From Euprymna scolopes (Eukaryota): 64,000 bases of DNA. Location of the stretch: the NCBI GenBank assembly GCA_053919585.1, contig CM132783.1, one strand, 5' to 3'. The notes beneath the pieces are model-generated. The model searched no databases. It worked only from the letters and a program-made list of their open reading frames with translations, and was not told the DNA's origin. Shown in pieces: positions 3,000-52,894 of this stretch (its first letter is position 1; each line of letters starts with the position of its first letter). Both the position numbers and the translations under genes were made by a program.

Positions 3000-3042
<43 letters not shown>

Positions 3043-3046
<4 letters not shown>

Positions 3047-25650: not shown

Positions 25651-26792
25651 CTGAAAGAGATACACATACTACTTCGAATTGTAAGTGAATTTTACATTCC
25701 GTAAAAATTTTCTCAACTGACTTATATGTGTGATAGATATAGAGCAGGTCCTGGCTTTTGGAAGTACTGGGAATCTGGAGAGATGTGGTTGCATTTATAG
25801 TTAAGGGAACATCACCGGTCAGTGCGAACTCTGAAGTAGTTGAATGGAACACCAACCAACTAGCAACAACATAATTTTCGAATTAATTCTCAATGACGTA
25901 TCTCAGACTGTTACGAACAACACCTACTCAGGTTGTATCAAATACTAATGTTAAGAATGAAATTATTGATATTAAAAAAAAAAGTTATTACGTTGCTCAA
26001 GTAGACTCGAGTAAAGGGCACAAATCTTATGCCAGTTCTGATCAGAATCAGTGATAAAGAGGTTACTTAATGATGGATTATATACCACAAATAATCTGCT
26101 TTAGTTAAAGCGTTAATATTTTGTGTAAAGTGGTGTCTTCATGTGTTTAATAAAACTGATATAAACNNNNNNNNNNNNNNNNNNNNNNNNNNNNNNNNNN
26201 NNNNNNNNNNNNNNNNNNNNNNNNNNNNNNNNNNNNNNNNNNNNNNNNNNNNNNNNNNNNNNNNNNNNNNNNNNNNNNNNNNNNNNNNNNNNNNNNNNNN
26301 NNNNNNNNNNNNNNNNNNNNNNNNNNNNNNNNNNNNNNNNNNNNNCTACTACTACCACTCCTCCGCCTACTAATACTACTATTACTACTACTAATAATAA
26401 AAAGAAAAAGAAGAAGGGAGGAGAAAAAGCTGTTTTCTAGGTAGAAATAATAATAATAATAATAATAATAATGATAATAATAAATACCAACAGGACCCGT
26501 GGAAATTCCACGGTAGTTAAAATCCTTTAAAACACATCAGTAAGAAATTCCTTATTGTTATATTACAAAAATGAACGTATGGAAGCAAGCAGAACAAAGA
26601 ACTTTAGTTTAAACTTTTATTGAAGGTCAATGCGATCGTAACTGATGCTGTTGATATTGTCAGGAAGTACTGGTGATGATTGAGGCGGTGACAGGGACGT
26701 CGATCAGCTACTTGAAGTGAGAATAGTGGTAAGTCAGCAGGTTCTTGGGAATCAGACTGTGAATTTAAAAAAAAACTGTGACATTGTTAACA

Positions 26793-27084
26793 TCGATTTT
26801 GTGAAAGTTCTGATGACCCCAAGTTGTTTAATATTTCAGGACATTTTGGATTACACGTGTGAGTAAGGAATAGGTCACAGAAAACTGACATTGCATTTTG
26901 ATAAAGCTGTTGTAGATTCTTAGGACTTCCTGTAACTGTAGATGGTAAAATAACTGGTACACCAGAATAACCATCTTCATTCCTTGCTAAATGATCCATT
27001 AAGCCAGAATATTTAGCAGCTCTTGGTTGACTTTGATAGATTTTAATGAAGTTAAAGAAGCAACCGTCAACTTTTACATATGCA
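26793..27084 (-). repeat. Duplicated Rep fragment in the Helitron 3' region
   Basis: Copy of 30352-30658 (MDHLARNEDG..NNLGSSEL) with a 15-bp deletion; also present in copy B at ~48020-48312. Confidence 0.95.
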
Positions 27085-27551
27085 ATAGACTTTTCTATTT
27101 ATTTTGAATTTTATTCAATGAAGATTTGGAAATTCACAAATATTTTTAAAGTCGAATAATTGATATAGATTTCAATTAATGCATCACAACTTCCTGATAA
27201 TATAAATAGAAAACTTTGAATTTTCTTCACAAACGTTTTTTTTTCCATAAAAACATTGTAATCTGTTATAATATTCAGATTCTTGTGTGCATATAAAATG
27301 AAGTGTTTCTGTAAAACTTACGAAGTACAGTAAAATTTTGATTTTTTGATAATAAAAATTACGTGAGGTAGGTTGTACCTATAAAATTTATGTCAATGTT
27401 ATATAATTAAGTAAAGTTAAACAAACTGTACACTACTTTCTCATCAAATTATGAATTTTAAATATAAGGGAAGCAATTAAAAAGTTTTTTTTCCAAAATC
27501 ATATTTACATCCAAGTTAATTTTTAGATTCCATAGCTGTTCCTGATTGTTT

Positions 27552-30500
27552 TCATAACACTTCTCGGTAAACAATATTCTTAGTATATGTTACACCACAC
27601 TTTCTGTCCTGATTATCATCTCTATGCAGTTGCATTACCTTAAATTTCACACTGTACTTAGATCGAGCTCTTGAACATGCCACATACAGTTGACCATGAG
27701 AAAATACAGGTTGTTGAAGATATATACCAACCTTATCTAAAGTTTGACCTTGTGCTTTATTGGTGGTCAGTGAATATGCTAATCGTATTGGAAACTGTAT
27801 CCGATGAAATGCAAACGGAACATTTGTATCACTTGGTTTTAACTTAATTCTTGGAATGATAACTGTGGACCCTCTATTAGATCCATTAATTAAAATAGCA
27901 ATGATGCTGTTTTGATGACATTCTTTTATTTTCATCCTAGTTCCATTACAAAGTCCTTGATTTATGGATAAATTTCGCAGTCGTATTACTATTGCCCCTA
28001 TTTTCGCATTAAGTCGGTGAGGTGACATTCCAGATAGAGTTAATGAATTTATGAACTCGATAGGATAATTTTGAAGTTCAGCATCATCATCGGAGATGTA
28101 ATCTGTACTTAAATGTGTATTTATGCCTCCGGGAAGATTATTTAGAATTTCTTCATTTACTGTAAAACAATCTGTATTGTTTGGAGTCATGATGATTCTA
28201 TTTTCCATTTTTTGAGGGCTGCAATCAAATATTTCTGAGATTAGAGAACCATTACATACCGAATCATCAGGAACATCTATGGCATCTACAGGAACGTCAT
28301 TGAGACTGCTCATTAGTGTACCATTACCAAGATGAAGTAGCCATCTACAAAACTCCTGTTCATTTATGTTAGTTCTGGCGTTTTGTGTTAGCTGTAATTG
28401 ACTGAAATGATGCCACAATGTGAATCTTTTAAGACAGGTGTCTATAATAGATGTAGGTTATCCATGTGACAGTACTGGCAAAATTTGCCTGAGGTCACCT
28501 CCAAGTATGAGAAATTTTCCACCAAATATTTTATCGTTACCCATTATATCTTGTAAACATCTATCTATAGCAAGCAGTGCATGATTAGGTATCACAGATA
28601 CCTACAAGAGAAACGTTACAGACACTGGTTTTTGTCAGAGGTGCAGGTAGTTTAATATACTGTGGAGTGTTTTCCCTGAAGTAAGTAGCATTGCAGCAAT
28701 GCCAGTCCATGCTGCAGTGGCGGTTACAGTACTGCTAGAGGTGAAGTAATCATATAACATGTTGAATAAAACGGGTTTTCCTGATCCGGCTGGGGCATCT
28801 AAATAGAAGCAATTGTTGTGTGGGGCTTCTTTTTCAGTTCCATGACAGCCTTGATTATAGTATTAAAGACCTCTAATTGTTCATTGTTTAGCAATTCAAT
28901 ATTAGGCTGGTTTGTATTTTGAGTCATATTATCTATTGGAGGATCACCTGTTGGTTCAAGTAAACTCATTGCCTGGCAAGAAGACCCATGCTCATTAAAT
29001 ATTGCTTTTATCAAATGAAGTGCAATGTTTTCACATATGCTTTCATCATAAGCAGAAATAAGTATTCAATCATGCTCTGTTTATGGTTAATGAATAGTTG
29101 AAAGGCATCCACTGGATGATGATAAAGACACAGCATTGCAAGCATGCTACGTAGTTTTTGTGGCATTCTAAATGTAGCAGCTTCAGTAAGAGCATTTTCT
29201 AATTCAGTATCATCTTGCAATAATCTAAGGCTGATGCAAGCTTCTCTAAATGTAGGGAATGTATGACCTTGGACTGTTCTCAAATCTTCAAATGACTTTC
29301 CTCCAGAGACATGAAGAAGCAAAATCCGTAAATAAAACTTTTCACCTTGGTTTGGTGAAACTGAATACATTCTTGTGATCAAATTACTTGGCCGCTCTCT
29401 TTTAGTCCATTTTGTAGTAGTTTTGTTAAATACATAATGATGTGGAATATCACAGTAAAAATATTGGTTAGCAGTAATATCATTCTGATTTAGTTCAAAC
29501 CAAGCAGTCAAATTTGTGTGGTGTTGTTGTGCTTGTTGAATTGCTTGTTCAGCTTGTTCATGTTGATAATAAATCTGTTGCTCTCCAGGCATGTGTACAG
29601 CTAAACCGTACACAACATGAGACTGTCCATGCATTTTATAGTCAGAAAGACGCCGCATTGCTTCTGGAGGTGATACATATCTGCATGATAGATATTGCTT
29701 GACTTTATCTCTTTGTTCTGATCGCATTGTTTCTTCTTGATTGATATTAATAGATGAATCATGGTTATTAACCTCCATCATAGCACTATCATGTCCTTTA
29801 TAAACATATTTAAATATGTATTTTATACTCTTGACTGAAGAGCAGATTTCTAAGTTAATATGAGCTCGATATTTTCTCAGAAGAAATTTGTTGAAAGGGA
29901 CTATGTATCTATTATCAAGAGTAAAATTACCGACTTGAACTGAGTCACCATTATTTGCACGCTTGTAAGCTGGGTATCCATCAATGTTTTCTACTGTTTC
30001 TTCTCTAAATGCCTTTGGAAAACTTTTTTTGCATAATCCTTTACTCATACAAGGAGAATTAGGATTAACTGCACCACATGGACCATGTACCATTAAAGAT
30101 TTAACTAAATCACGAAGCTCTGGATCTTCAGGTCCAGGTATTTCTGCTGACACAATTGCATCAATTTGTTGAGCTGTTCTGATCTTATCCTGATCTCGCA
30201 GCATTATGATCATGTGGCAGTGTGGTAGCCCTCTATTTTGAAATCCAATAACATAAACATATGCAACATGAGTTCCCAATACATGTCTGTCTTTAATGTC
30301 TTTCAAAAGTTCAGTTAGATGTGCATGAAACACACGTGATATTAGGTCAGGTCGATTTTGTGCAAGTTCTGATGACCCCAAGTTGTTTAATATTTCAGGA
30401 CATCTTGGATTACATGTATAGGTAAGGAATAGGTATGGCTTTCCATATTTACAGAAAACTGCCATTGCATCTTGATACAGTTGTTGAAGATTCCTAGGAC

Positions 30501-31796
30501 TTTCTGTAAATGAAGATGGTAGAATAACTGGTACACCAGGATCGCCATCTTCATTCCTTGCTAAATGATCCATTAAACCAGAATATTGAGCTGCTCTTAG
30601 TTGACTTTGATGGCTTTTAATGAAGTTCAATCTGCACCCTTCAACTTTCACATATGCATCAACTACATATTGTTGGAATAGTTTACCAGATCTATGGATA
30701 ATACTGAATGAATCTCTAATTGCAAGGCGATAACTGTAATACTCTTGCATTGTCACTTTATTGCGAACTCTTGTTTGCTGTTCTGGCCTATGTTGCATGT
30801 TTATGTGCCAGCCTTGTTCAGCATTTGGAAACAATATGGGATATATCATGGGGTCCAGGTGGCAATACATATAAGAATTTCGGTGTTTTGGTTGAGAATG
30901 TGGGTAAACAATAATATCTCTGTTAGCAGGTGGAGCACCATCCTCACCAACAAATGCTACACCTATTTCGTTGTTTATTGGATTGTTAAATATTTTGATA
31001 TCTGGACCAGCCGTAAAATGCATCGAAACTCTCCTTGGCTTTACATTTTCCCTTATAGCAAGTGCTTCCTCTTCTAATTCAATGGCCCTCATATTTTTAT
31101 AAGCTTGGGCATAAGGATTATACTCCATAACTGTAGCTATGGTTTCAATGACACTTTTGATACATTTATTATTTTCTGGTAAATTACACCGGAGTTAATT
31201 TGCTTCAGATGAGTCCAAGATGTAAATTTGACCATATTTTCTCTCCTCTTCATTATTTGGGTGCAGAGTGCTGGAATAATGATAGGTTTGACCTTGTAAT
31301 CGAAAACAATAGGGGCCTCTTCCAGAAGGGCGGACAATATTTGCTCAAAATATGCAAATGAAAATAATGAGTTGTAATTGCGTATATTAGATCTGAAATT
31401 AAATGCTTCTTGGTCATTACCTTCGAGTATACTTTGGAGTTGAGGAGGATAATCTTGTAAGGGAGGAAGAGAAACTTTTTCTTTTAGACAACAATTCAAT
31501 GCTTCTCCTCGAAATCTAAGTGCTTTACAAAATGAGCAAATTAAACTCATGTCACCTACAATATAATACGGGATATTCATATTGTTTCTTCGTTCCCGTT
31601 GCCTAGCTCTTTTATTTTGCAGATAAAGTTGTCTGTCTTCTTCAGTCATGTTATTTATTTGCTGTCTCAATATGTTTCTCCTTTGCAATCTGATATTATC
31701 CCTTTCTTCAGTTCGTAGCTGCTGACGCCTTCGTCTTTGTCGTTCTCTTGCTGCACATCTTGTATCTTCCAATGTAGTGGTAGTGATTTGGTTCAT
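27552..31796 (-). pseudogene. Helitron RepHel pseudogene (zinc finger, HUH Rep, Pif1-like helicase)
   Basis: 31137-31796 coiled coil + CSFCKA..NCC; 29011-31128 Rep with FLTYTCNP, VIGFQNRGLPHCH, KYIFKYVYKG; Walker A DAPAGSGK ~28800; 27552-28418 GLCNGTR, QFPIRLAY..TNKAQGQT, HGQLYVACSR; frameshifts at ~31350 and ~29055, Walker B deleted. Confidence 0.95.
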
Positions 31797-31797
31797 T

Positions 31798-32730
31798 CTG
31801 TGTGAAAATTTAATTAGTCTTAATAAAAAAAATATAAATAAAGATTTTGATATGAAAAATAAATGTTTCTATAATGAAATAAAATTAAATATAAATGTTT
31901 AAAATGAAAATAAATATTTCTTTATTAATGAAACCGTCTTTTATATTAAAAAATCATTAATGTGTAATTTTTCTAAGAGGGAATTTAAATCAATATTTTC
32001 ATAATTTAGCTCTGTAAATAGGATATCTAGATGATATCTAGGTGAATTATATAAATTATTTAATAATAAATTATTCCCTCTCGTAACATTTATTGGTGAT
32101 TCTACACTTTGTCGCCGAAAAAAATATCCCATGTTTTTCAGCGCACCTGCTGCCAGAATCCAAGAGAGATATCAGTATTTTAAAGTGTATGAAATATTTT
32201 ATTTATTCGATAAATATATTGAAGTAAAAGTGTAGAAGCACCTATTTTGGCTTTAATTAAAGAACTGTACACGCTTTCCAGTTATTTCATGATTCGGTCA
32301 TAGTTTAAAGTACTGATGTCTTCCTCGGATTCTGGCAGCAGATGTGCTAAAAAAACATAGCGTTTTTTTTCGGTTACAAAGTGTAGAAGCATACATTTAT
32401 TTGTGAACATGTTATTTCCTTTTGATGAATAACTTAATAATTTCATTTCAATAAATTATATCTTGAATTTTGTAAAATATACGAAAAATGAAAAAATTGA
32501 GAATAAATATTTGTTTAAATCCTAAGTAATGAAACAAAGTGTTTATTTGATATTAAAAATGTTAAGTTGCGTAATTTTTCAAAGGGTATTTAATAGTCAA
32601 TATTTTTTCTAATTTATCTCTATAAAGATTAAAATTTAAGTATTTTAATGGCCGTTTCTAAAATTGCCGAAAGTAATTTAATTATTTTTAATATTTACAG
32701 TAAGAAGGATCAAAAATGTTAAAAACTTAC
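31798..32730 (-). other. Putative 5'-UTR intron of the RepHel transcript
   Basis: Donor GTAAGT at 32730; branch CTAAT and ttttcacacAG acceptor ending at 31798, one base before the ATG at 31796. Confidence 0.55.
32100..32388. repeat. ~65-bp inverted repeat (MITE-like) inside the Helitron intron
   Basis: ttctacactttgt..ctgctgccagaatcc (32100-32161) vs ggattctggcagcag..acaaagtgtagaa (32327-32388). Confidence 0.7.
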
Positions 32731-32903
32731 GCCGGATTAAATATTTAGTTTCTGATCATCAAAATAAGCTGCTTATAATCATTTAATGCTGGATGACTTA
32801 TCCACAAGTCAGTAAACTTTGTTGAAGCAAAGCTCTGTTTTTGTTGTTGACGATGGTGTTGGTTGTTTACGGTTAAATGAATAACGAAATTTCACCAAGT
32901 TGC

Positions 32904-32936
32904 ACTGGTTTATTAGATAATTTTGTGACTTATATA
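32904..32936 (-). promoter_or_regulatory. Putative Helitron core promoter (TATA + Inr)
   Basis: Minus strand TATATAAG at 32936-32929 and CCAGT initiator-like A at 32906, 30 nt downstream. Confidence 0.5.
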
Positions 32937-33229
32937 GAAGCTTTACCGTAAAATTCGGCTAAAACAATTGTTGACGAATTACCTCCTTTGAATCAATATC
33001 GTCTGCTTGTGGCCATTGGAGATCGTCTGCTTGTGGTAATTGAAGCGAAAACCTTATTAGGTATTAAATGCTAAAACATTTTAATACGGCTGGCTAATTG
33101 GCTATAAAGTAAAAGTTATTCCGAACTTTGATCTAACATTTCCATAAAAAAAAAGAAAAAAAAGCTTAACATTTTCTTGTATCTATTTTTTATATTAAGA
33201 AAAATGTAAGCATCATGGTGAAATAATAG

Positions 33230-34090
33230 AAATACCATTCTTAATAAGGGAGAGGGTTTGACTATTCTAAACCTTCACCTAAATAACGATTTAACGAAAA
33301 AAAAATGTTCTTGTATCTTTTTTTATAATTTTTGATAAATAAGAAAAAGCAATAAACTTTGATAGCACTATTGTAAGAATCATGATGAAAACCATTCTTA
33401 ATATGGGGGTAACTATTCTGAAACTTCACCTAACAATGTAAAAAAAATAAGGGAAAAATATATGCATGAAAAATAAATATGTTTACAGTTAAATAAAATA
33501 TACTGTCAATCTTTAAATAAGGAATAAATATTTATTTAAACCATAATTATTGAGAGAAAGTATTTTACTGCAAAAAAACGGTTATGGGGGAAGGGTTAAC
33601 TATTTTGAACCTATTTTGATACAAGAGAATAAATATTTCTTAATTAATGAAACCGTTTTTTATATTAAAAATCATTTAATGGTCTTGTATCTTTTTTTAT
33701 AATTTGTTTTAAAATAAGAAAAAAAAACTTTGATACCGCTATTGTAAGAATCATGCTGATATGGGAAAGCGGGTTAAATATTCTGAAACTTCACCTAACA
33801 ATGTAATAAAACCTTCGAGACAAGATCAAAGTGGAGTATCTGTTCTTCAGATGCTGCACTTCAATTTCTTGTTCTCTGTCAGTGGAGGAGAAATCCTTCA
33901 CGACTGAGACATTTTTTTCCTTTTCTCCACGTTAAAAAAACACCCTGGTGTCTATATCTGTCCCGTGGGGAGGCATTGTTAATAGGAACAATGAAATAAA
34001 AATAATGGAAAAAATATATGTATGAACAATAAGTATTTCTTCAATTAAATAAAATATACTGAAAATCTTGAAATAGGAAATAAATATTTC
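33230..34090. repeat. Helitron subterminal repeats
   Basis: Recurring ccattcttaata.gggg..ggttaactattctgaaacttcacctaa blocks at ~33235, 33392, 33585, 33760; mirrored at 44570-45235 in copy B. Confidence 0.7.
33812..33986 (+). mobile_element. 175-bp retroposed insertion in Helitron A
   Basis: Absent from copy B; flanked by 15-bp TSD aacaatg(t/a)aataaaa (33797-33811 / 33987-34001); homologous to the 45522-46019 element. Confidence 0.85.
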
Positions 34091-35364
34091 TTTAAATAAA
34101 TTAAATCGTAAGTAATGAAACAAAGTGTTTAATTTCATATTAAAAATAATTGTTGTGTCGGTGGGCATTAGAAGATGATGACTGCCTGTAAAAGAAGCAA
34201 AATAAATCAAACAAAGCATAAGTAATAACTATGTAAACAACGTGAAGCTGTATAAATGTTACAAAATTACTCGATTTGGCATTAAATAACATGAAAAAGT
34301 ATTGATATGCCGTAAAACAAAAGCAAAACAAAACAGAACAAGACGTAAAATATGTTTTGACTCTGTGTTACTCAGTGTATTTGCGAATGGTCTACTTTGG
34401 TGATTTATTTAATAAATCATTCTTGACTTTTGTAACATGTGTTTCTAAACATATTTTCTGTTATGTAAGGCTCACTCAAAAGTAAAAAAAAATAAATAAA
34501 GTGGCACAGTAAAAAAAAAACGAACTCGTAACGTTAAATGTAAAAAATATATTTATTACTGAATAAAATAGAATAAGCGTCCGTATTACACTACACTAAT
34601 AAACGGAAGACGTCGTTAAAAATGTAAGTAAAATACTATACTATTTAAACTGTGGAGCGATACCTTCTTTGCATAATTGTCTTTAAAATAATCCAGAACC
34701 ATAAATAGACAGGTCATATATTTTTTTTTGCTCGGGAAGTTTTGGGAAATAAAAGGGTTTAATGATTTTAACTAATAAAGATTGAACAATAAAGGGAGAT
34801 AATTCATTATAATTAATGTTGGCGATGATGATGACGCGTTTCATAATTTAATGTTTGCGATGATGATGATATGACACCGTACGGACAAGCATATTAATAT
34901 ATAGATACACACTCCCTCCAAAATAAACGCATCAGTTTCGCCTGATTGCTCTTAAACCAGTTCCCTTTTTCATGAGTGCGATGGTGACGAACATCAGAAA
35001 TTCAGTTAAAACCGATGGTCATTGGCAGGGAGAAATCAATAGTAAACTGCTTTTGTCATAACAAATATTATTTGCAAAGTTTATTGAAAGATGTAGGAGG
35101 TACATAAAACATATGGATGGTTTATTGTCGCCCGAAGTTACGGGAACACCACCAATTATTACCAACAATAATCTCTGTTTATGACCTGTGTGATAACACA
35201 AATAATGATGTAGTTAAAGAATTATGATATATTATGATCGTTAAAGGCAACAATAAATAAGCGTATAGAGAACAAAACGAATGCCAGACGAAAGATCAAG
35301 AGGGTCGTGTCGTTTGAAAGAATAGTAGGATTTTTCACTGTCTAACTGTCTAATTCGTTGATTT

Positions 35365-35540
35365 GCTTGTCGAACTCGGAGCACACAGTTAGTAACTCAA
35401 TAATAAAGTCAATGATCCGCAGTCATTCACTCACATATCCGATGTCTATGAGGTGTCTTCTGACAAGCAGATGTGTGAATAAGAAAAAGACAAAAAACAA
35501 ATAACCTTGTTATAATGCCAGCCAATATTGAAGGCGTGAA
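35365..35540. repeat. Dispersed repeat, second copy at 41277-41450
   Basis: Shared gcttgtcgaactcg.agcac..catatccgat..gcagatgt..ccttgtta motifs in the same order. Confidence 0.55.
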
Positions 35541-37499
35541 GGCGTGAAGGAGTGTACAACATAAACACACTCTACACAAAAACACTACTCAAACACACAC
35601 CCTCACACACACACACATATATATATATACATACATATATATACATATATATATGTGTGTGTATATATATATGTATGTATAAACTAGATGTCGTAATCGA
35701 GTATTGTCTGTTTTCATTTACTTTCATCTATTGACAGTGCTCTTTTCGCTTTTTTTCAGTTATTGTTTTGTAAGAAAATATTTGCATTTAAAAAAGATAC
35801 TTAAATGAAGAAGAATATTTCCTGTGTTATTATTTCCCTACGATGAGAGAATTGAACTCAAATTCCGTGTTCAACGTGAGCGACATCTAGGTCCGCAAAA
35901 GAGGACAGTTCGAATTCGTACTCAAATTAAAAATCGACTAAGGTATAAGGATTGCTTCTTAGCTTAATGTTATAACAAAAACGACGTGGCACGCTATCAT
36001 AAGACCTAGTACAGTTTGGCCTTAACCTAAAGGTTAAAAGATCTGTTTTGCATTAATAAGCAATCAGATATATAAAGAAAATGTGAGATTTCCATCCAAT
36101 TAATATTTTAAAGTGTATTACTTTCCGTAACGAAAAAAAAAAGTATTACATAGTATGATAGATGAAATAATATTGTATGTCGGACTTTGCATTTTACTTA
36201 TATTCCAAAGAGTATGGTTTGCTTATTTCTATTAACTGAAGAACATTGTTTAAAAGTATTACATGTTTTTAAAAAATGCTGATATAAATCGTTACTTTCA
36301 AGTGTAGAATTGTTTAAGTCAAGTTATATATGTTATAACAATTCTATGCATAGAAACGGGAAAAAAGTGTTTTATACGAGAAAGCCATCGCACAGGCTTC
36401 TTTAAGCTATTAATTAATAAGTGTCACGTGACCAGTGATAAAATCCCTTGGGGATCGGTCGTGATGAAAACTGTTGATTAATCACTAAAGAGAATAAATA
36501 AAAAAGGAACATGTTACATTGTGCTTGAAATTTATCATGTTATAGTCAGCTTGGAAGTAGCCCCGCAGTATTATGTTCAATAAGTTAACAGTTGATAGGA
36601 AAAAACTTAGTTCATGGATTTTCTGTTTAGTTTTAGGCTCAAGAAAAAAGAATGGAAAAGAAAAAAATTGTTGACATTTTATGCAGCTAGACGATGTCTG
36701 TAGGTTGTCAGATGAGTAACAGATGTGTGGACAAGAAGAAAATACAGATAAGCTCGATATAATTCCAGCAAATAGGCTTGACAGCGAGTATAACACACAT
36801 ACATACATTTCTACACACACATACATACGCACACAAAGACACACAGACGCACACACTCAGAAAACTTTTTTTTTTTTATATATATACTTTCGTCCATTGA
36901 CAAAGGTCTTATAGTTTTCTTCTTTCCGCTAAATTTTTTAATAAAATATTTACAGTTTAGAAAGAAGTTAGATGAAGAATAACATGTCCTAATTTACTTG
37001 CTCCCTTCTGAGGACAGGGTAAGGTGCAAAGTCGTTTTTTAATGTTAGAGAAAATTCACTTCCTTCAAAATGGACACTCTGAATTGTGACACAATTTAAA
37101 AATAAGCGCAATTAACAGGGATTTCTTATTCTCTAACCTAGAAGAGAAATGTTGAGGCGTATGTATCAGAACATTTTTTAATTAAACGATTTGTTTTGCA
37201 GCAACAATAAAATATCATAGAAAATTGTAAGATTTTTTAGCCAATAAATACTTGCAAGTTCATTCCATTTCACGGTGATAAAGGGAGGTTTTGGATGCTA
37301 CATTAAAAATTCAGCAAGTCACTAAACAACGGAGTGAGTTTATTACGAGAAAAATATGTGTACGCATTAATTTTCTTGAGTCTTCGTTAATTACTATAAG
37401 GCTGCCTGCCGGTGCCCAGTCGTAAAATACGTATAAATATTATATTTTAATTAATGCAGAATATTAATTGATGATAGTAATTGTCTGTATTTTTGAGAT

Positions 37500-37650
37500 G
37501 AGGTGTTTTCATTGATTGAGATTGTCGGACTGACTTCCTCATCTTGGTTGTTATTGTCACAACGTTTCGGCCGTTTTGCCCTCCGGCCTTCGTCAAGTGA
37601 ACCGTTTGTTAGGAGTCTCGAACCCAACCCTTTTATTATTTATTGATGAT
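37500..37650 (-). mobile_element. Penelope-type pseudo-LTR fragment with minimal hammerhead
   Basis: Minus strand tcac-TTGACGA-a-GGCCG-gagggcaaaa-CGGCC-GAAAC-GTT-gtga, then aacaaccaagatgagga..agtccg as in 12540-12570. Confidence 0.7.
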
Positions 37651-37891
37651 GAATCGAAATGTCGTAGCTATTAAACGTAACGTTTAATTTCTTAAAAAGT
37701 AAAGTAAAAAAAATGGAAAGAAAGAACAGCATGTGCATGCGATTATTATGTTTTTTTAACAGTTCTCTTCTCGTATGAATGAAAATACTCAAACTGTGAT
37801 CTAAACAAAATCCTAATGTATGATAACAAATGCACCAGATTAATATTACTTTAAAATAGTGTTTTTAAACAACACACAATTAACATAACTA

Positions 37892-40385
37892 TTTTTTTAC
37901 AATCAGGGCACCACTTATCAAGGCCGGAAGCCACTCAGGGATAAGGGTTATTACATATACAGTACGTTGTACGTTAGTGTTGAGATTTCACAAAGTGTCT
38001 ACTTAAGGGTGCGGTTCATCAGGAATTTGTTTACGTTGGATTTGAAGACATCCAAGTTGTAGTCAGGTGGGAAACAGGCAGACGGAACAGAGTTTCACTG
38101 GCGTGCTGTTCTAAGAAAGAAGCTTTGTTCATGGAATCTACGTTTTGATTTAGGCACAGCTAGAGAGTGGGGAAAATATTTGACAGTGGCTTCAGCTAGA
38201 CGGGTGTTTTTCGTAAAAGATTGGCGGAGGGGGCAGAGATTGGAGCTCAGACGAACACTTGCCATGGAAATAACGGTAAAACAAAGACAGGCTCGCAAAG
38301 TCTCTTCTGTGGGAGAGAGGTTGCGGGGAAGATAAAATGGCATCCCCAACTAAGCCACGAAGTCTATTTTGTACTCTGTCAAGACAGGATAGGCTGTTTT
38401 TAGCAACAGACTTGATGTACGTGTTCCATTTCATATCAGAAGCTTGTCAAAACATTGAACTTCTAGACGAGAGTCGTCCATTACAATTCATGGCAGATGG
38501 GATCTGAGCATTAATGGTGTAAAGATAGGAGATTGGTTTTAGATGCATTAAAGGTAACCAGCCACGTCTTCCCCCACTGAACTACACGCTCGAGATCAGA
38601 GGAGAGAGAATCAGAGAGAACTTTGTCATTTACAGCCTTTGATGTGTTGTCGTAGATGGTCGTGTTATCAGCATAGATGTCTACGAATGATTTAAGTATG
38701 TTTTTATGGAGATCATTGATGTAGATCTGGAAGAGAGGTGGGCCCAGGATGGACCCTTGAGGGAGTCCAGCATTAATACTGCAGGCCTCTGATTTTTGTC
38801 AATCGACCACTACTCATTTGAGCCTATCAGAGAGAAATGATTTAATGATTGAGAAAACATTTCCAGTTATACCGTAGCTGAAAATCTGGTTAAGTAAGCC
38901 TTTATGCCATACCTTGTCGAAGGCCTTTGATATGTCAAGTGCAATTGCCCTATAAAGGTAGGCTTTGTCGAGAGATTCGCTTATCCTATGCGATATAACT
39001 GTTAGCAAATCTACGGTAAATCTTGCAGAACGGAAACCATATTGCGTGTCACTAAGGAGGTTATTTCTGCTGAGGTGGTTGACTATTTCTCTATTTAGTA
39101 TGGATTTTAGCAACTTACTCATAACACACAGGAGACTTATAGGTCTGTACTGAGAGGGAGAGGATTTATCACCTGAATTCTTAAATACAGGGTATACTGA
39201 TGAGGTTTTCCAGGGTGTTGGAAAGCACTTGGAGCAAGTTCAGGTTGAAGCTTTTTTTTTTTTTACACTATAATTGGAATGCCGATAGGGGCAGTTTCTT
39301 TACTGGAAACAAGGTTCTTGATTAGCTTGGAGACCTCATGCACAGATAGTTGTATATTACCTAGCGTGTTTTGTGTTATAGGAGGAAATATGGGGAGTTG
39401 ATGGCCTTCGTCGCATAGAGTAGAATTAGCTACAAAGTTCTTTGCAAATAGTTTGGCCTTGTCTGATGCTGACGAGATGACCTCAGGTCCATTGATGATA
39501 GTTGGGATAGAACGCATACTTCTATTCAGGATCCTATTTGTTATTTGCCAAAACTGGTGGGAACCAAGCCGCTGATCAGCTACTTTGGATTTAACAGACT
39601 GGGCATATATCTCGCTTGCATTTTTTATTACTCTTTTACAGTGGTTGCTGGCGTTCCTGAAAGCAGCTTTAGTCTCAGTGCATCTATTACGTTGGTAGTT
39701 ATGGAAAAAGTGATTTCTGTGCACAATGGCAGCAGCACATTTTGGGGAATACCATGGCTGGCTGTTAGGTTTAAGTTGGAATTGTTTAGATGGCATGAAT
39801 CGGTCTACGCCTACAACTAGCCATTCGGTTATGTATGATACTATAGAGGGCACATCCTTTTTAAACATGGAATACAGCGGTAGATCAGATATGAATGTAC
39901 GGAAGCTATCCCAGTCAGCCATGGAGTATCGGTATACAGTACATTTTTATCTTAACTGATATAACGGAGTGGTCGGATGATCCTAGAGGAGAAAGAACAA
40001 TGCATGAACATAGCTCAGAGGAGGTTAAGAGAAAAAGGTCTTGAAGGCTTGCAAACTGACCAGTAGTATCTGGCACTCGGGTGGATTCGCGAACAATCTG
40101 AGTGAGGTCATAGGCAATGGCAACGTCATGACAGAACCTCCCCTCGTCATCTGTCTTATTTGAGTGGGCCAGCCATTCCACGTTATGGGCATTGAAGTCA
40201 CCACAAATGTGAATGTTAGTCGAGGGCTGTGGGGGCGATAGAGGCCAAATACAAATGCAGTGGTGTAAGCTAGTGCAACCCATAAGCACATATAAGGTAA
40301 ATTAGGGTCTTTTATGGAGATATCCCTGGCACATGGGAAGCCATCTTTAATGTAAGCACATATTCCATGCCCATGGCGATTTTAG
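37892..40385 (-). mobile_element. CR1/Zenon-like LINE (APE+RT), decayed, 5'-truncated
   Basis: GDFNAH, LGSSDH, QYGFRSAR, ALDISKAFDKVWH, GLPQGSILGP, IYADNT, HRRDFASLSLFYRYFHGKCS; 3' tail gtaaaaaaa at 37892; same family as 21150-24599. Confidence 0.9.
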
Positions 40386-40859
40386 GGGCCATAACGTACT
40401 TGTCATATTCTACGACCGCGCATGTGCAGCCGTGAAACAGTTGAGAACAGATACAAATCCGGTTGCCTCCAATGTACCAATTGTTCAATTCTTACATCTT
40501 TGCAGCCTTTTGTTCAGGGAGAAAACGGATTTAAAAGTTTTTTATATGTCTAAATATTCTTATACAAAATTTCAATTCTGAACAAAATAAAGACTGAAGT
40601 AAATAACTTAAGAAGTTTTCTCACACAGACACTTTCACTTTTATAGATATAAAGGTTATTAAGAAATACACGTCTTGTATTAAGCAATACATGCTTTAAA
40701 TATGTGAACGTTAGCTAAAGTTTTAGAAGCTATCCAAATGGTCGCCTGTCTCGAACATATTAGAGAATTTTACCTAATGTAAACTGTTTTAAGGTATTCT
40801 AAAGACTTGAAACTTGTTTAGATATAGTAAAAGAATTGATAGAGAAATATAGCTAGCAA

Positions 40860-41022
40860 TACCGGGTCCGAGTGGAAGTCCGGTAATGTCTTCAGTCGCT
40901 GAAATTCCAGCGAAAACCACTGATCGTAACCGACAAGACTATTATGGTAACAGTAATAATATAAAAATTTCTATGTGATTGGAGGCTGGTTGACATCCAA
41001 GGACTCGAACCACAGGTAAAAC
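40860..41022 (-). mobile_element. Possible tRNA-derived SINE relic
   Basis: B-box GGTTCGAGTCC on minus strand at ~41000-41010; no clear A box. Confidence 0.3.
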
Positions 41023-41959
41023 CGTTTTTTTTTTTTTTTTTTTTTTTAATTTTTATTTTACATCGGAGAGATCACTGTGAGATCGCTTAAGGAATATATG
41101 ATTATACTAGCAATCACAGAGTAACTTATTTATCATAAGATAGTGCACCCGATAAGATATCCATACGAACAGTGTAAAAGTTAAGCAACGTGAAATAGAA
41201 ATGAGACACAAGACGAAAAAGGTCCGCACATTTTAAATAGAAATATGTTAAGCCGCCTACTTTCTTCCCGTTCTGGCTTGTCGAACTCGAAGCACTCGGT
41301 GAACGATTGGAAAGTAAAACACAGACGCCCGCCTACTGACTAGCATATCCGATTTCTTTTACCCATCAGCTGGCAGGCAGATGTATAAATGTATAAGAAC
41401 CAAAAGTCTAAAATCCCTTGTTACCGATACAGACGTGATAAAAGGTATGTCGGCCTGTGTGCGCAATATAAAGATGGAGGTCTAGCATTAAAATGATAAT
41501 GGAACTCCGGAGCGCACATATCTCCGCTACATATTTTTTATTTTCCTCTCATTAGAACCATAGGACATGCGAGGCATAATCCAAACAAACACTTAAAATT
41601 AGACATGGTGAAAAATATAGCAAAATATCTATATGACTGGAAATTGGTTTCTTGTCGATTTTATTTTCGGCAATTAACTTACCACTTTCATATTGTATTA
41701 ATACAGAGCACCTGTTATTTTCAAATAGTTACACTTTACTATGTAAATATAAATAAAGTTCAATGTTGTTTATCTTTGATGATTCAATAAAAAATAGTTT
41801 TCTCAAAATGAAAGCTTTAACTAGTAATACTGACTGTTTACTAAAGAGGTGTATAAGATTTGCTTAGTATAACGTTTATATTTACTCACCATGTGAATAG
41901 AGATTAACACCACATTAATTTGATAAATTAGTAATAAGTTTACAAATTGGCCCAGTTAT

Positions 41960-42934
41960 AAACTTAACGATCCAAGGACGCTGTAAAAATAAAACGACCA
42001 ATCAACGTGTGGCACCACGGTGGTTAAGGAAATTTAGTAATTAAGAGCGACTGCGGTTGATAACGAACATTTAAAGCCTTAATTGAAGCCGATCCTCGTA
42101 AAACCACACGAGAAGTTGCTGTTGAACTCGAGGTCGACCACTCAACAGACATTCGCCATTTAAAGCAAATAGGGAAGTCACAAAAAGTTGGATAAATGTG
42201 TGTCGCATTAATTGAGCGATAATAATAGAAAAAAAAAACACATCGTTTTGAGGTTTCGATTACGCTCCGTCTGCGCAACAAAAACGACCCATTTCCGTGG
42301 CGGATTGTGACGTGTGATGGAAAGTGGGTCCTCTACGACGACCAGCGACAGTTGGCAAGGTGGTTGGATGCCAGAGAAACTCCATAATACTTCCCGGAGC
42401 TGAAATTGCACCAAAAAAGGTTATGTTTACTGTTTGGTTATTTTGAATCCAGACGAAACTATTACGGCGGAGAGGTAATGCGGAAAAATTGACGAAATGC
42501 ACCCGAAGCTCCAACCTATGTGCTCGAGAATTGGCCAATATCAAGGGGCCAATTCTCCTCCATGACAACGATCGCCCGAATGTTGCTCAACTGAATTTGC
42601 AAGAAGCTGATCGAATTGGGCTACGAGACTCTGCCTCATCCGCCATGTTTAACAGACATCTCGCACACCGCTTATCACTTTTTCAAGCATATTTGCAACG
42701 TCCTGCGGGAAAAACGCTTCAAAAGCCGACATAATGTCGAGTCGACCTTCAATGACTTGATGTCTTCCAGAAATCTTGATTTCTACGCTAAGAGGATAAA
42801 TACACTTGTGTCTCTTTGGCAAAAATGTGTCGATTATAATGGTTCTCATTTTCAGTAATTGAGTTTACTATGAAAGGTTTTATGATCTTATGAAATTGAA
42901 CGTCAAAAATGACATTATTTTTGCACCAACCTAA
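41960..42934 (+). mobile_element. mariner (DD34D, Hsmar1/cecropia-like) relic
   Basis: KALIEADPRKTTREVA, RIVTCDGKWVLYD, LLHDND, YETLPHPPCLTDIS..YHFF, WQKCVDYNG; 3' TIR ttatttttgcaccaacctaa + TA. Confidence 0.9.
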
Positions 42935-43193
42935 TAACAGCTAGGAGAGACATGTTTCCAAATATGTCTCATATTTCGCCTCATTGGTTTTCATACGTAA
43001 ATACATTCACGGTGTATAGGGATCAGTTGATACTGGACATGTTCATGATTGTGCCCTAGTTCCAAAAGAGAGCGAAATATAACAGATGAGAAATATTTGG
43101 AATCAAGTCTCCCCTGCTGTTATTTAAGGTCATTTGACATCATAGCAGCAAACATTAGTCTTCCCTCAATAAAGGTCAGAGGTACAGAGGTAT

Positions 43194-43265
<72 letters not shown>

Positions 43266-43796
43266 CACACGAGAGGCATCCCAAAAATAATGTCTATATA
43301 TATTTTTTTTTATTTTGTAGGAATGAATTACAGGAGGTTGCAAATTACATTATTATGATGATTGAACATATTCTTCGATGACATAAAAGATTCATTTCCC
43401 CGTTGCAGATATTAACGGTATGAGACTTTAAGAAAGGAGCGCATTTCATGGACGTACGTCAATAGCAGAAATGTGTCATTTGATGTCTATCAAAAATACA
43501 TTGTGTATTCTGGTTAATATCTAGAAAAATACATTCTGGGCACAAAAGGTCGTTCGTTTTAATGGTACCCTTTCTGCCTTCAACATTGTTAGATTAAAAA
43601 ATAGAAGGTTTTACTTTGGACCGACCATAGTGTATATTATTATTATTACTATCCATATATTAATATGATTGTCCGTACGGTGTCACGTCATCATCATCGC
43701 AAACATTAATTAATGTGAATTGTCTCCCTTTATTGTTCACTCTTCATTAGTTAAAAAAATCATTAACCCCTTTTATTTTCCAAAACTTCCCGAAAC

Positions 43797-43888
<92 letters not shown>

Positions 43889-45521
43889 CTGTCTATATAT
43901 GGTTCTGGATTATTTTAAAGACAATTATGCATAGAAGGTATCGTTCCACAGTTTAAATAGTATAGTATTTTACTTACATTTTTAACGATGTCTTCTGTTT
44001 ATTATTGTAGTGAATACGGAACGCTTATTCTATTTTATTCAGTAATAAATATATATTTTTACATTTAACGTTAGGAGTTCGTTTTTTTTTTTTTACTGCG
44101 CTACTTTATCTTTTTTTTTATTGTGCCACTTTATCTTTTTTTTATTTACTTTTGAGTGAGCCTTACATAACAAAAAATATGTTTAGAAATACATGTTACA
44201 AAAGTCAAGAATTACTTTATTAAATAAATCACCAAAGTGACCATTCGCAAATACACTGAGTAACACAGAGTCAAAACATATTTTACGTCTTGTTCTGTTT
44301 TGTTTTGCTTTTGTTTTACGGCATATCACTCCTTTTTCATGTTATTTAATGCCGAATCGAGTAATTTTGTAAAATTTATACATCGTCACGTTGTTTACAT
44401 AGTTATTATTTATGGTTTGTCTGTTTTATTTTGCTTCTTTTACAGGCATTCATCATCTTCTGTCAACCGACAGGGCATACATATTTAAATACTATAAAAA
44501 ATGGACACAACATTGTTTTGAATATGAAATAAAACACTTTGTTTCATTACTTACGATTTAATTTATTTAAAGAAATATTTATTTCCTATTTAAAGATTTT
44601 CAGTATATTTTATTTAACTGAGGAAATATTTATTGTTCATAAATATATTTTTTCCATTATTTTTATTACATTGTTAGGTGAAGTTTCAGAATAGTTAACC
44701 CCCTCCCCATATTGAGAATGGCTTTCGGCATAATTCTTACAATAGCGGTATCAAAGTTTTTTTATTTTTTTATTTTAAAACAAATTATAAAAAAAATACA
44801 CGACCATTAATTTTTTTTCATTAAATCGCTACTTAGGTGAAGGTGCAAAATAGTTAACCCTTCTCCCCCATACCCGTTTTTTTATGCAGTAAAATACTGT
44901 TTCAATAATTATGGTTTAAATAAATATGTATTCTTTATTTAAAGATTTACAGTATAATTTATTTAACTGAAGAAATATTTATTGTTCATACATATATTTT
45001 TCCCTTATTTTTTTACAGTGTTTCGTAAAGTTTCAGAATAGTTAACCCCCTTCCCTTATTAAGAATGGCTTTCAGCATGATTCTTACAATAGTGCTATCA
45101 AAGTTTATTGATTTTTCTTATTTAACAAAAATTATAAAAAAGATACAAGAACATTTTAAACATTTTTTTTCATTAAATGGTTATCTAGGTTAAGCTTAAG
45201 AATAGTCAAACCCTCTACCCTTATTAAGAATGGCGTTTTTATTATTGCAGCATGATGCTTACATTTTTCTTAATATAATAAAAGATAAAAAAAAATGTTA
45301 AGCTTTTTTTTTAAATTAAAATGTTAGATCAAAGTTCGGAATAACTTACTTTATAGCCAATTAGCCAGCTGTATTAAAATGCATTTAATATCTAATAAGG
45401 TTTTCGCTCCAATTGTCACAGCAGACGATATCGATTCAAAGGAGGTAATTCGTCAACAATTGTTTTAGCCGAATTTTACGGTAAAGTGTAGTGGTGAATA
45501 TATTATACATATCCCCCAGTT

Positions 45522-46019
45522 TGTATTTATTTGCTTCTCACTGAGCAAATTAGGCACAAGGCCGTTTTTTTAATGTGGAGAGAGAGGGAGAGGGGAGGGA
45601 AATGGGGACCAGCTCCCGATGGGTGGGAAATGGGAGTTTGATAGGAACTGTGTGTATGAAGGGTTGCCCCTACACTGACCAAGATAGATATGTGGGGTTA
45701 CCCCCACATATGGGCTTTGCTAGCAGTATCTGTCGGAACAGTTGGTTTATTTGCTTCCCCACTGAGCAAATTAGGCACAAGGCCGTTTTTTAATGTGGAG
45801 AGAGAGGGAGGGGGAGGGAAAGGGGGATCCAGCTCCCGAGAGGCTGGATAGTAACTGTGGTTTCTAGGGTGATCCCTACATTGACCAAGTTCAGATATGT
45901 GGGGTTACCCCCACATATGGTCATTGCTAGTCATAGCTAGTCTTTGCTTCAGCATCTGTCGGAACAGATACTGCACTTTGATCTTGTCGCCCGGGCCGCA
46001 AAGGGCGGGGGTCAGTGTA
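45522..46019 (-). mobile_element. Dimeric structured SINE-like retroposon
   Basis: Perfect 18-bp TSD tatacatatcccccagtt (45504-45521 / 46020-46037); two ~220-270-bp related units, each ending agcaaataaa on the minus strand. Confidence 0.8.
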
Positions 46020-46038
46020 TATACATATCCCCCAGTTA

Positions 46039-47546
46039 TTCATTTGATAAAAGCAATATTTAATGAGCATGGTTCTTCTTGCCAGGCAATGGGTTTACTT
46101 GAACCAACAGGTGATCCTCCAATAGATAATATGACTCGAAATACAAACCGGCATAATGTTGAATTCCTAAACAATGAACAATTAGAGGTATTTAATACTA
46201 TAATCAAGGCTGTCATGGCAACTGAAAAAGAAGCCCCACACAACAATTGCTTCTATTTAGATGCCCCAGCAGGATCAGGAAAAAAAAATTTATTCAACAT
46301 GTTATATGATTACTTCACCTCCAGCAGTACTGTAACCGCCACTGCGACATTGCTGCAATGCTACTAACTTCAGGAAAAACACTCCACATTATATTCAAAC
46401 TACGTGTACCTCTGACAGAAACCAGTGTCTGTAACGTTTCTCCTCTATCAGAGCATGCTTTTTTTGAGAAAGGTAAAGGTATTCATCATAGACGAAGCCT
46501 CTATGATACCTAATCATGCACTGCTTGCTATAGATAGATATTTACAAGATATAATGGGTACCGATAAAATATTTGGTGGAAAATTTCTCATACTTGGAGG
46601 TGATCTCAGACAAATTTTGCCAGTAGTGCCACATGGATCACCTACATCTATTATAGACACCTGTCTTAAAAGATGCCCATTGTGGCATCATTTCAGTCAA
46701 TTACAACTAACACAAAACGCCAGAAGTAACATAAATGAACAGGAGTTTTGTAGATGGCTCCTTCATCTTGGTAACGGTACACTAATGAGCAGTCTTAATG
46801 ACGTTCCTGTAGATGCCATAGATGTTCCTGGTGATTCGGTATGTAATGGTTCTCTAATCTCAGAAATATTTGATTGCAGCCCTCAAGAAATGGAAAATAG
46901 AATCATCATGACTCCAAAAAATACAGAATGTTTAACAGTAAATGTAGAAATTCTAAATAATCTTTCCGGAGGCATAAATACATATTTAAGTACAGATTAC
47001 ATCTCCGATGATGATGCTGAACATCAAAAGTATCCTATCGAGTTCATAAATTCATTAACTCCATCTGGAATGTCACCTCACCGACTTAATGTGAAAATAG
47101 GGGCAATAGTAATACGACTGCGAAATTTATCCATAAATCAAGGACTTTGTAATGGAACTAGGATGAAAATAAAAGAATGTCATCAAAACAGCATCATTGC
47201 TATTTTAATTAATGGATCTAATAGAGGTTCAACAGTTATCATTCCAAGAATTAAGTTAAAGCCAAGTGATACAAATATTCCGTTTGCATTTCATCGGATA
47301 CAGTTTCCAATACGATTAGCATATTCACTGACCACCAATAAAGCACAAGGCCAAACTTTAGATAAGGCTGGTATATATCTTCAACAACCTGTATTTTCTC
47401 ATGGTCAACTCTATGTGGCATGTTCAAGAGCTCGATCTAAGTACAGTGTGAAATTTAAGGTAATGCAACTGCATAGAAATGATAATCAGGACAGAAAGTG
47501 TGGTGTAACATATACTAAGAATATTGTTTACCGTGAAGTGTTATGA
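46039..47546 (+). pseudogene. Helitron Pif1-like helicase fragment
   Basis: LDAPAGSGK (Walker A), frameshift, then 373-aa ORF with IIDEASM, GGDLRQILPV, GLCNGTR, KAQGQT, HGQLYVACSR. Confidence 0.95.
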
Positions 47547-49891
47547 AAACAATCAGGAACAGTTATGGAATCTAAAAATTAACTTGAATGTAAATATGAT
47601 TTTGGAAAAAAAAATTTGTAATTGCTTTCCTTATATTTAAAATTCATAATTTGATGAGAAAGTAGTGTACAGTTTGTTTAACTTTACTTAATTATATAAC
47701 ATTGACATAAATTTTATAGGTACAACCTACCTCACATCATTTTGATTATTGAAAAAATCATAATTTTACTGTACTTCGTAAGATTTACAGAAACACTTCA
47801 TTTTATATGCTTGTAATACACAAGAATCTGAATATTATAACAGATTACAATGTTTTTATCGAAAAAAATGTTTGTACAGAAAATTCAAAGTGTTCTATTT
47901 ATATTATCAGGAAGTTGTGATGCATTTATTGAAATCTATATTAATAATTTGACTTAAAAAATATTTGTGAATCTCAAAATCTTCATTGGATAAAATTGAA
48001 AAATAAATAGAAAAGTCTATTGCATATGTAAAAGTTGACGGTTGCTTCTTTAACTTCATTAAACGCTATCAAAGTCAACCAAGAGCTGCTCAATATTCTG
48101 GCTTAATGGATCATTTAGCAAGGAATGAAGATGGCGATTCTGGTGTACCAGTTATTCTACCATCTACAGTTACAGGAAGTTCTAGGAATCTACAACAGCT
48201 TTATCAAGATGCAATGCCAGTTTTCTGTTACCTATTCATTACTTACACATGTAATCCGAGATGTCCTGAAATATTAAACAACTTGGGGTCATCAGAACTT
48301 TCACAAAATCGATGTCAATAATGTCACAGTTTTTTTTTTTAATTCACAGTCTGACTCCCCAGAACCTGCTGACTGACCACTATTCTCACTCCAAGCAGCT
48401 GATCGACGTCCCTGTCACCGCCTCAATCATCACCAGCACTTCCTGACAATATCAACAGCATCAGTTACAATCATACTGACCTTCAATAAAAGTTTAAACT
48501 AAAGTACTTTGTTTGTTCTACTTGCTTCCATACGTTCAATTTTGTAATATAGCAATTTCTTACTGATGTGTTTTAAAAGATTTTAACTACCTTGGAATTA
48601 ANNNNNNNNNNNNNNNNNNNNNNNNNNNNNNNNNNNNNNNNNNNNNNNNNNNNNNNNNNNNNNNNNNNNNNNNNNNNNNNNNNNNNNNNNNNNNNNNNNN
48701 NNNNNNNNNNNNNNNNNNNNNNNNNNNNNNNNNNNNNNNNNNNNNNNNNNNNNNNNNCAACAGAAAATTGCATAAATTCTAAGAAAGCATAAATCATACA
48801 GTCGTGTACCTGTCATATTCTACGACCGCGCAAATGGATAGATACATCAAATACAATGAGATTGATGTGTAACGCAAGTAAACTAAGAGAACGACAGATT
48901 GTCATTAAAAATAAAACAATCAAAACAGCAAAAAAGATAGACCGAGCGAAAATGGCGAATTTTAAAGGGCAAGGAAGCTGAAATGCATTAAATACATACA
49001 CTTGATTTAATCCAGTAAATAATGTCAATCACATTTCGGTGCTCAACAAGGTTAATTTTCTGTCATTGATCAAATGACATGCGCGACCAATTTCTGAATC
49101 ACTTTCAGACAAAGTTTCGAAATGGATCAATTTTCGTTATTGAAAAGTTAACGAGGCGTTCTATGCCAGAATGTGCGATTCATCTCTCCAAAACACGGGA
49201 TCACCGATGGGAAATCACGGAGATTTGAAAAGGTCACGTAAGATGGTCAACTTTGGTTTCGACGCATCAGGGCCGGCTGATAATGGGAGCGACAGCGAGG
49301 AGGCGGGTGTTGTTCAAACACCAGAAAGTAACTGGAGTGTGAAAGCTGAAGATGTGGAAGATTGAGATGAAATTGAAGATCCGTTTCATTAATTCATGAT
49401 TTGCCATAATGGGTGTGAGCTTCCAATAGATCGGATTTCCAAACGACAAATTAATTATGTAAGTAGAACAAAGACAAAAACCACACTAACAATAATTATA
49501 GTAGCAGTGGAAAATAAAATACTACTACTACTACTACTAATACTACTACTAATAATAATAATAATTGCAATTACTATAAACACTCTAACTCTAAAACGCA
49601 TATGGTGACTCGAGCCTCTACTTTCGAAATGTGAGGAAGATACCGAGAAGTGGGATCGTCAGTCAGGTCCCTGCTAGAACGAGTACTAAGATATTGAATA
49701 GATTTAATCGAAGTTGTGACAATCGTTCAGTCTAGAGAGATAACCGATTCACTGTAATAGTAACTGGCCATGAGATTGGCAAGCACGGAATGTGTAATCC
49801 ACATCCAAACATATCCTGAATCGGCACTGCTTACTTCCGGTGGCAAAAGGGTTTATCATTTGGCTTAAAATAATACCGAGATAAGCGGGGA

Positions 49892-52711: not shown

Positions 52712-52890
52712 AGGACGGTGACAACAGAATATTCTTTTCATTCTTTTGATTCTCAAGTATATATCCGACACAGTAAGACACAGTCAATAAAACGAGCACC
52801 AAACCAGTCTTTATAAAAACATATAAGATATTAACGGATATATACTAAAGAATCAAAACAATAGAAAGAATATGCTGTTGTCACAATCCT
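52712..52890. mobile_element. MITE-like element
   Basis: 27-bp imperfect inverted repeats aggacggtgacaacagaatattcttttc / gaaagaatatgctgttgtcacaatcct. Confidence 0.55.
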
Positions 52891-52894
52891 TTTT

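Follow-up and report, generated by a model that had tools for sequence, protein, structure and literature searches.

Within a 64,000-nucleotide (nt) stretch of the Euprymna scolopes genome (5.9 Gb), on contig CM132783.1 (G000:C1:107880001-107944000; 'the window' in what follows), are two Helitrons of one family, A on the minus strand and B on the plus strand, each carrying a short insert. It is quite probable that these inserts, called A and B after their hosts, represent two related repeat families whose head derives from U2 small nuclear RNA (snRNA) and which are likely moved by U2-specific long interspersed nuclear elements (LINEs), and that each entered an ancestral Helitron once and then multiplied with it. 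What the family likely aims at is U2-like sequence, together with one spot in a non-autonomous Helitron, N1, rather than the antisense strand of the window's Helitrons.

The insert that a first-pass annotation had picked out in Helitron A, its 15-bp target-site duplication (TSD) and the motifs shared with insert B are real, being borne out by the junctions and by the likeness of heads (26/27 nt match, E 1.6e-7; ~40 nt in common) and tails (~55 nt in common; local score 51, none of 1000 dinucleotide shuffles exceeding 36). However, the bodies between common head and tail are unlike so that, judged on their sequences, the two are members of related families and not, as had been proposed, one retroposon that struck both Helitrons. 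Insert B, moreover, is a dimer. Helitron B is empty at the spot matching insert A. Neither type ends in poly(A): the 3′ end is TAAATAGG plus AAC or TAC in A-type units and AAATAAATAC in those of B-type. The annotation was right that no third copy is present in the 64 kb, where only a weak 55-nt tail-like match (36992-37045, E 0.004) was found, and that both inserts are antisense to RepHel, each lying opposite to its host as oriented by Pfam Helitron_like_N and PIF1. Its placement of both on the 5′ side stands for insert A; insert B is ‘5-prime’ only because the Rep region has been deleted, its TSD lying in filler at the deletion junction. In A and B, sequence further downstream is predicted to enclose the U2 branch-site pairing bases in a long hairpin (window 33818-33880; L083, L120), and in a further Helitron host, Y, a different complementary stretch was noted by eye. 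Such a hairpin, as predicted, could neutralise the U2 piece or serve as an editing substrate.

The genome's true U2 genes, located by motif search, form a large tandem array of 764-bp period (Rfam U2, 161 bits) that extends from G000:C9:168867294 onwards (L196-L209), and there are 1,186 exact motif matches genome-wide. Against this U2 the head of insert A matches nt 23-48 (25/26) and that of B nt 23-46 (23/24), and in better repeat copies the match runs from ~nt 10 to 47. Likeness past nt 47, e.g. a retained Sm site, was rejected, since 87-187 of 500 shuffles score equally. Rfam scans of the inserts gave U2 at only 19-21 bits, below the cut-off of 46, and no tRNA, 5S or 7SL match; internal T runs occur in A. 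The families are short, non-coding, dispersed and flanked by target duplications. Genome-wide there are 32,663 exact matches to the 24-nt head and 71,430 to the pattern of the B tail, with 0 for the controls of each; insert A has 39 other near-full-length matches at 90-92% (40 scored of 2508 candidates), and whole bodies are common to thousands of copies at ≥90%. Bodies are also shared across 70 sampled heads (the first 70, all lying within the initial 20 Mb of a single chromosome), the unit that follows being A in 34, B or a further type, C, in 29, a variant seen at host Y in 5, and a LINE or other sequence in 2. At the background density of 5 clusters in 742 kb, 0.43 are expected per 64 kb and the probability of two or more is 0.07.

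That the window's inserts are hitchhikers, one of the possibilities raised by the annotation, is borne out, because both recur with identical junctions in other copies of the same Helitron. For A, 5 of its 29 other top matches are at the identical Helitron junction (two lie 1.8 kb apart), and among the first 100 of 697 matches to the site, the window copy counted, 5 are filled, with one junction, and 95 empty. Site B, carried by a deletion subfamily, is filled in all of the first 100 of its 169 matches. Forty Helitron copies (127.7 kb), taken in list order and made up of two from C2 and every one listed for C3 and C4, have no private insertion where 0.86 would be expected; all 7 of their internal clusters are at site B, 2 with an added unit. 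Each window insert thus likely stems, to judge from the sequences, from one old event in an ancestral Helitron that was then copied with Helitron transposition.

As to the likely agent of movement, four long interruptions of the U2 gene array were examined and all proved to be intact LINEs with two open reading frames (ORFs), ORF1 of 766-887 and ORF2 of 1145-1151 amino acids, with apurinic endonuclease (APE), reverse transcriptase and zinc finger domains (Pfam PF03372, PF00078 and PF13966). Their closest solved structure is L1 ORF2p (E 7e-64, vs R2 E 5e-19); one homologue is named, from Argonauta, and none is named Tx1 or Keno among the 120 listed or their clusters. At least two families are present in the array and three copies are 99% identical with open frames. 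One array LINE is accompanied by a duplication of U2 nt 22-47, while three others start with U2 nt 1-47 and stop at the U2 start. The LINE 3′ untranslated regions (UTRs) share the B tail motif GGCCTT(T)GTGCCTAA, and three end in TAAATAC as B does. With one family, K1-LINE, whose 3′ ends were fetched with a query ending before the junction was reached, 30 of 30 ends (query included) adjoin AAGATCAAAGTG; the hosts are heads of A units (14), of B or C units (10) and other U2-headed sequence (6), with a true U2 gene in none. LINE 3′ ends are at U2 nt 1, 23 or 27. B tails are followed by CATCTGTT, the Keno/Utopia U2 site, in 77 of the first 100, in a pattern that omits tails with A as the eighth base after them and in which array members are not independent. 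For A-type copies ending GAAC the TSD starts with AAC in 5 of 8, and for those ending GTAC with TAC in 9 of 10 (AAC vs TAC, p 0.002), an agreement that supports pairing of the RNA 3′ end with the target. Site A is in this respect an ordinary AAC site.

Plain and expanded forms are found at one host site (L080 and L148 vs L077 and L078; L083 vs L076, L082 and L125), which shows that units were joined later, and the window's B dimer is, on sequence comparison, a case of such a later-added unit. The alternative that arrays and head-to-head junctions come from multimeric donors, template jumps or tandem duplication instead of site-specific insertion draws on runs of near-identical units (L173, L135, L296) and on what is reported for the crocodilian SINEU families, considered below, whose heads were gained by template switching (PMC4494074). 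It seems improbable, since copies of a single Helitron-borne insertion hold different added units at the head, and since full-length LINEs flanked by a U2 duplication occupy the same head, in true U2 genes too. Two other elements of such nests deserve mention. One, of 333 bp with a B-like tail (L038:1956-2268, minus strand; L091-L110), is very young, with many 100% identical copies among 1393 candidates; in 20 of 20 loci, counting the source, it occupies one and the same hairpin of B units, and it forms a tandem array with 333-bp period at G000:C35:19370238-19373214. The other (L120, L065, L073, L085, L086, L128, L129, L142) has two U2-like heads, which in different copies are filled by different B units and LINEs, and, on that sequence pattern, appears to be a mobile landing pad; from its subterminal inverted repeats and 3′ palindrome we take it to be Helentron/HINE-like.

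Repeated use of a Helitron site does occur elsewhere. N1, ~600 bp long with 2,331 pattern matches (control 58), is non-coding and a Helitron on structure only (5′ TC preceded by A, 3′ hairpin and CTAG followed by T, ends common to copies). The insertion site begins ACWGGCC and is filled by B-type units in 19 of the first 100 copies (L146 included); 20 of the 100 had been picked as possibly filled and 18 were confirmed, all sense, whereas 20 of 20 fetched controls are empty there. Among the 18 filled copies are 13 junction types, distinguished by eye, and several unit types. A host tree built from 29 of the 40 loci fetched, 13 of them filled and 16 empty (the 11 lacking a detected downstream anchor being left out), rejects a single origin (approximately unbiased test, p-AU 1e-62) and has 7 changes, at least 3 of them forced by strong branches; gene conversion or loss could widen this scatter but not the variety of junctions. 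In N1-borne units, as in window insert B, the first bases of the GC leader are those that open the N1 site. N1 is a per-site hotspot and not the main home, because only 1 of the 70 sampled heads is there.

It is against this background that the annotation's more ambitious suggestion, a parasite aimed antisense at the 5′ side of the window's Helitron family and perhaps supplying silencing RNA, is to be judged; we regard it as very unlikely. Two different ancestral insertions in one Helitron family, both antisense, are in its favor, and so are a copy-level enrichment in Helitron hosts, quantified below, and the existence of a true hotspot in N1. However, the absence of private insertions and the 95 of 100 site-A copies that are empty speak against targeting of the window's family, as does the fate of the enrichment when shared sites are counted once: Helitron ends are then near 19 of 89 flanks vs 93 of 510 background windows (p 0.46) and the excess is gone. 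For the collapsed comparison 19 of the 70 loci were dropped because they repeat a site already counted, and the test is a rough one, de novo detection of ends being noisy and the set consisting of 5 of 134 5′-end clusters and 6 of 17 3′-end clusters chosen by eye plus five further ends found by eye. Targeting in the annotation's sense is not supported for the window's own family and survives in altered form for N1, whose single site B-type units use repeatedly, and in sense. As for strand, an antisense bias finds no support: independent Helitron-hosted sites are 5 sense (X, N1, Y, L111, L118) and 4 antisense (A, B, L071 and probably L113), with orientation at L071, L113 and L118 judged by eye. 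Host X, a second autonomous Helitron, has its A copy on the 5′ side of the RepHel frame in sense. The AAC/TAC strand skew neither explains nor predicts an antisense bias. What the annotation had itself named as refuting its proposal, genome-wide abundance of the family with no enrichment or strand bias in Helitrons, is largely what is found.

Nor do transcripts favor antisense RNA to RepHel, which had also been proposed. Both window inserts point to the Helitron 5′ end, away from the RepHel coding region, so that read-through from either would head away from it. In four poly(A)/oligo-dT RNA runs, reads of insert A pile up in both directions, and 94-97% in three runs and 62% in the fourth continue into unlike sequence. 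Depth is <15 in the Helitron bins adjoining insert A vs ~1500-3600 inside it (runs X22 and X23), and few reads cross its junctions; the few Helitron-flank reads in X22 are mostly in one direction, which is in line with the proposal. The libraries miss small RNAs and the reads are not assignable to the window locus. The pattern fits copies embedded in other transcripts.

The least probable alternative, that the inserts are internally deleted LINEs or chimeric U2 retrocopies formed one by one and not families resembling short interspersed nuclear elements (SINEs) with donors of their own, can appeal to the LINEs themselves starting with U2 nt 1-47 and sharing the tail motif, but BLAST of A or C against sampled LINE UTRs matched only the head and a tail motif of 17 nt and nothing of the body, and thousands of copies have whole bodies in common.

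Several observations weigh against the reading of passive carriage combined with U2-directed insertion. The private-insertion test is weak, excluding only rates above ~23 per Mb, which is 3.5 times that of the background. In a tree of 30 A copies the six Helitron-borne ones form no single clade (3 changes, no starred branch); as this tree is uninformative, it is the identical junction that speaks for one origin at site A. At the level of copies there is enrichment: by our own count 23 of the 70 sampled heads are in Helitron-like hosts, the window's Helitron family holds 4 of the 70 while covering 0.37% of the background sample, and before collapsing, Helitron ends are within 1 kb in 32 of 117 flanks vs 93 of 510 background windows of 1 kb (p 0.03). 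Tails within arrays, not being independent, may partly stem from multimeric donors or tandem duplication, and among the LINEs found none has a tail closely like that of A.

Mechanistically, LINE proteins would recognize the tail common to LINEs and repeats, mobilizing the latter in trans, and repeat RNA would be reverse-transcribed at a nick in target-primed fashion, its 3′ end pairing with the nicked target. A-type copies would then enter scattered sites, AAC or TAC, in agreement with the bases at their own 3′ end, and B-type copies and LINEs mainly to U2 sequence, most of which may now be the heads of earlier copies, with mixed tandem arrays growing as a result. B-type units with the GC leader would return to the one N1 site whose sequence starts that leader. 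As no internal promoter is expected in the U2 fragment, the repeats are likely transcribed by read-through that starts in the host locus, and RNA extending into the duplicated target would favor return to a similar site. A bolder version, for and against which we find the balance about even, is that a sequence-specific LINE lineage escaped a scarce target by breeding decoys: the SINE would scatter U2 sites by the tens of thousands, Helitrons ferry them, and LINEs, B-type SINEs and the 333-bp element stack nested in them, with N1 both a recurrent target and a likely donor.

Among known systems, the crocodilian SINEU-1/2/3, associated with Tx1-Mar LINEs, have a U2-derived head, a length below 500 bp, TSDs and no internal promoter; tandem insertions around the TSD occur, a site in a DNA transposon, Mariner, is preferred, and SINEU-2B has a Mariner-derived 5′ extension (PMC4494074). 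The U2 head, short length, TSDs, tandem insertion, a site in a DNA transposon and U2-headed LINEs are all shared with the families described here, and the GC leader resembling the N1 site is reminiscent of the SINEU-2B extension (PMC4494074). They differ in that SINEU was reported from crocodilians only and not from an invertebrate, has a 3′ poly(A) that is lacking here, has ~10,000 copies instead of tens of thousands, and, for SINEU-1, has no tail motif found in common with LINEs; moreover, the main target here is U2 in the repeats' own heads and the transposon hotspot is in a Helitron, not Mariner (PMC4494074). An origin independent of crocodilian SINEU is the more likely. Mentions of ‘SINEU’ in an octopus paper proved to be of SINEUP, which is unrelated.

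Keno, of the Tx1 clade, is a U2-specific LINE, and the 3′ flank of Keno and Utopia is TCTGTTC (PMC6136364, PMC4640811). The two-ORF APE-type LINEs in U2 genes and the B-type tails that stop at TCTGTTC are Keno-like (PMC4494074, PMC4640811, PMC6136364), but the LINE ends are at U2 nt 1, 23 and 27 and only B-type units use TCTGTTC (PMC6136364, PMC4640811). The sampled K1-LINE copies also differ from Keno in being in repeat heads and not in U2 genes. U2 as target, the 3′ flank of B units and tandem insertion are shared with Utopia, whose restriction-like endonuclease sets it apart from LINEs with an APE domain (PMC4640811). By analogy the system appears to work like SINEU/Tx1-Mar and Keno, yet it is not filed as a member of either because poly(A) is absent and the LINE junctions are not those of Keno. 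Passive carriage of retroposed DNA in Helitrons is already known. In the bat case retroposition into a Helitron, a TSD, empty sites and amplification with the Helitron are found as here; the distinction is that the passenger in E. scolopes is itself a target of further insertions (PMC4224331).

For those working on transposons the first point of interest is a SINEU-like family in a cephalopod. No report of one outside crocodilians was found in the openly searchable literature; Repbase, Dfam and subscription journals were beyond the scope of that search and may list it. Kojima and Jurka pointed out that dependence on a target with as few copies as U2 would seem to serve survival badly (PMC4640811), and escape from this scarcity is countable here, the target traveling in SINE heads. 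With intact LINEs that are 99% identical and very young passengers, both target choice and SINEU transcription, the latter an open question (PMC4494074), become directly testable. A twist on crocodilian SINEU/Tx1-Mar is that the target of the partner LINE is likely being spread by the SINE.

The hosts and inserts are set out in Table 1. Hosts A and B have RepHel domains, 5′ TC and a 3′ hairpin with CTAG; X is assigned by tblastn to the window RepHel. Helitron B is without a segment equal to A 29020-32940, an internal deletion of 3.9 kb; the filler there has no good counterpart in Helitron A (best local score 19), and the 3′ end of B continues into an N stretch.

Table 1. Helitrons, inserts and their parts in the window (tilde, approximate)
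Feature	Position	Strand	Basis or remark
Helitron A, RepHel split into three frames	26487..34905	-	5′ TC end at 34905; 3′ hairpin and degenerate CTAG at 26487; family 3′ end; Pfam Helitron_like_N
Rep portion of RepHel, Helitron A	29011..31194	-	PF14214, E 3e-52
TSD of insert A, 5′ copy, AACAATGTAATAAAA, starts AAC	33797..33811	+	single copy at empty site in Helitron B
Insert A, A-type U2-headed retroposon, monomer, slightly 5′-truncated	33812..33986	+	39 other near-full-length matches
U2 snRNA nt 23-48 (25/26) in insert A, base-paired in predicted long hairpin	33822..33847	+	comparison with genome's U2 gene
TSD of insert A, 3′ copy, 1 mismatch	33987..34001	+	comparison with 5′ copy
Helitron B, deletion derivative without N-terminal and Rep regions	43652..~48601	+	mapped against A; PIF1 ORF 46416-47546
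Filler DNA at 3.9-kb deletion junction, holding one 18-nt TSD copy (45504-45521)	45487..45521		comparison with A
Insert B overall, dimer	45522..46019	-	between two identical 18-nt TSD copies (45504-45521, 46020-46037)
B-type body and tail, putative ancestral unit, common to all Helitron-borne copies seen	45522..45741	-	monomer form in L083, L229, L233, L237, L245, L259
Second B-type body and tail, likely later insertion into U2 head of ancestral unit	45742..45961	-	added units differ between Helitron copies
GC-rich leader and U2 nt 23-46 (45985-45962, 23/24)	45962..46019	-	U2 comparison
18-nt TSD of insert B, other copy	46020..46037		identical to 45504-45521

Some further features of the Helitrons and their surroundings may be recorded. 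In the 3′ region of the Helitron, 300 bp from its own Rep sequence are present as a duplicate (window 26793-27084, 30352-30658, 48021-48312), retained in many deletion derivatives, and a 51-bp inverted repeat (32134-32184 / 32304-32354) is inside the portion of Helitron A that is absent from B. A subfamily represented by L232:1378-2678 and like copies has, close to site A, an additional ~1.2 kb without a match in the window Helitron or the U2-headed library. Around the Helitrons are a decayed mariner-like transposase, recognized by eye, and three related decayed LINE copies (41900-42940, 38000-40400, 16200-17450, 21960-24560). Small non-autonomous Helitrons are at 52700-53521, with hairpin and CTAG at ~53520, and at 62704-63990, with TC ends at ~62700-63550 on repeated units, and a 400-bp inverted repeat of 92% identity is at 61186-61586 / 61969-62364.

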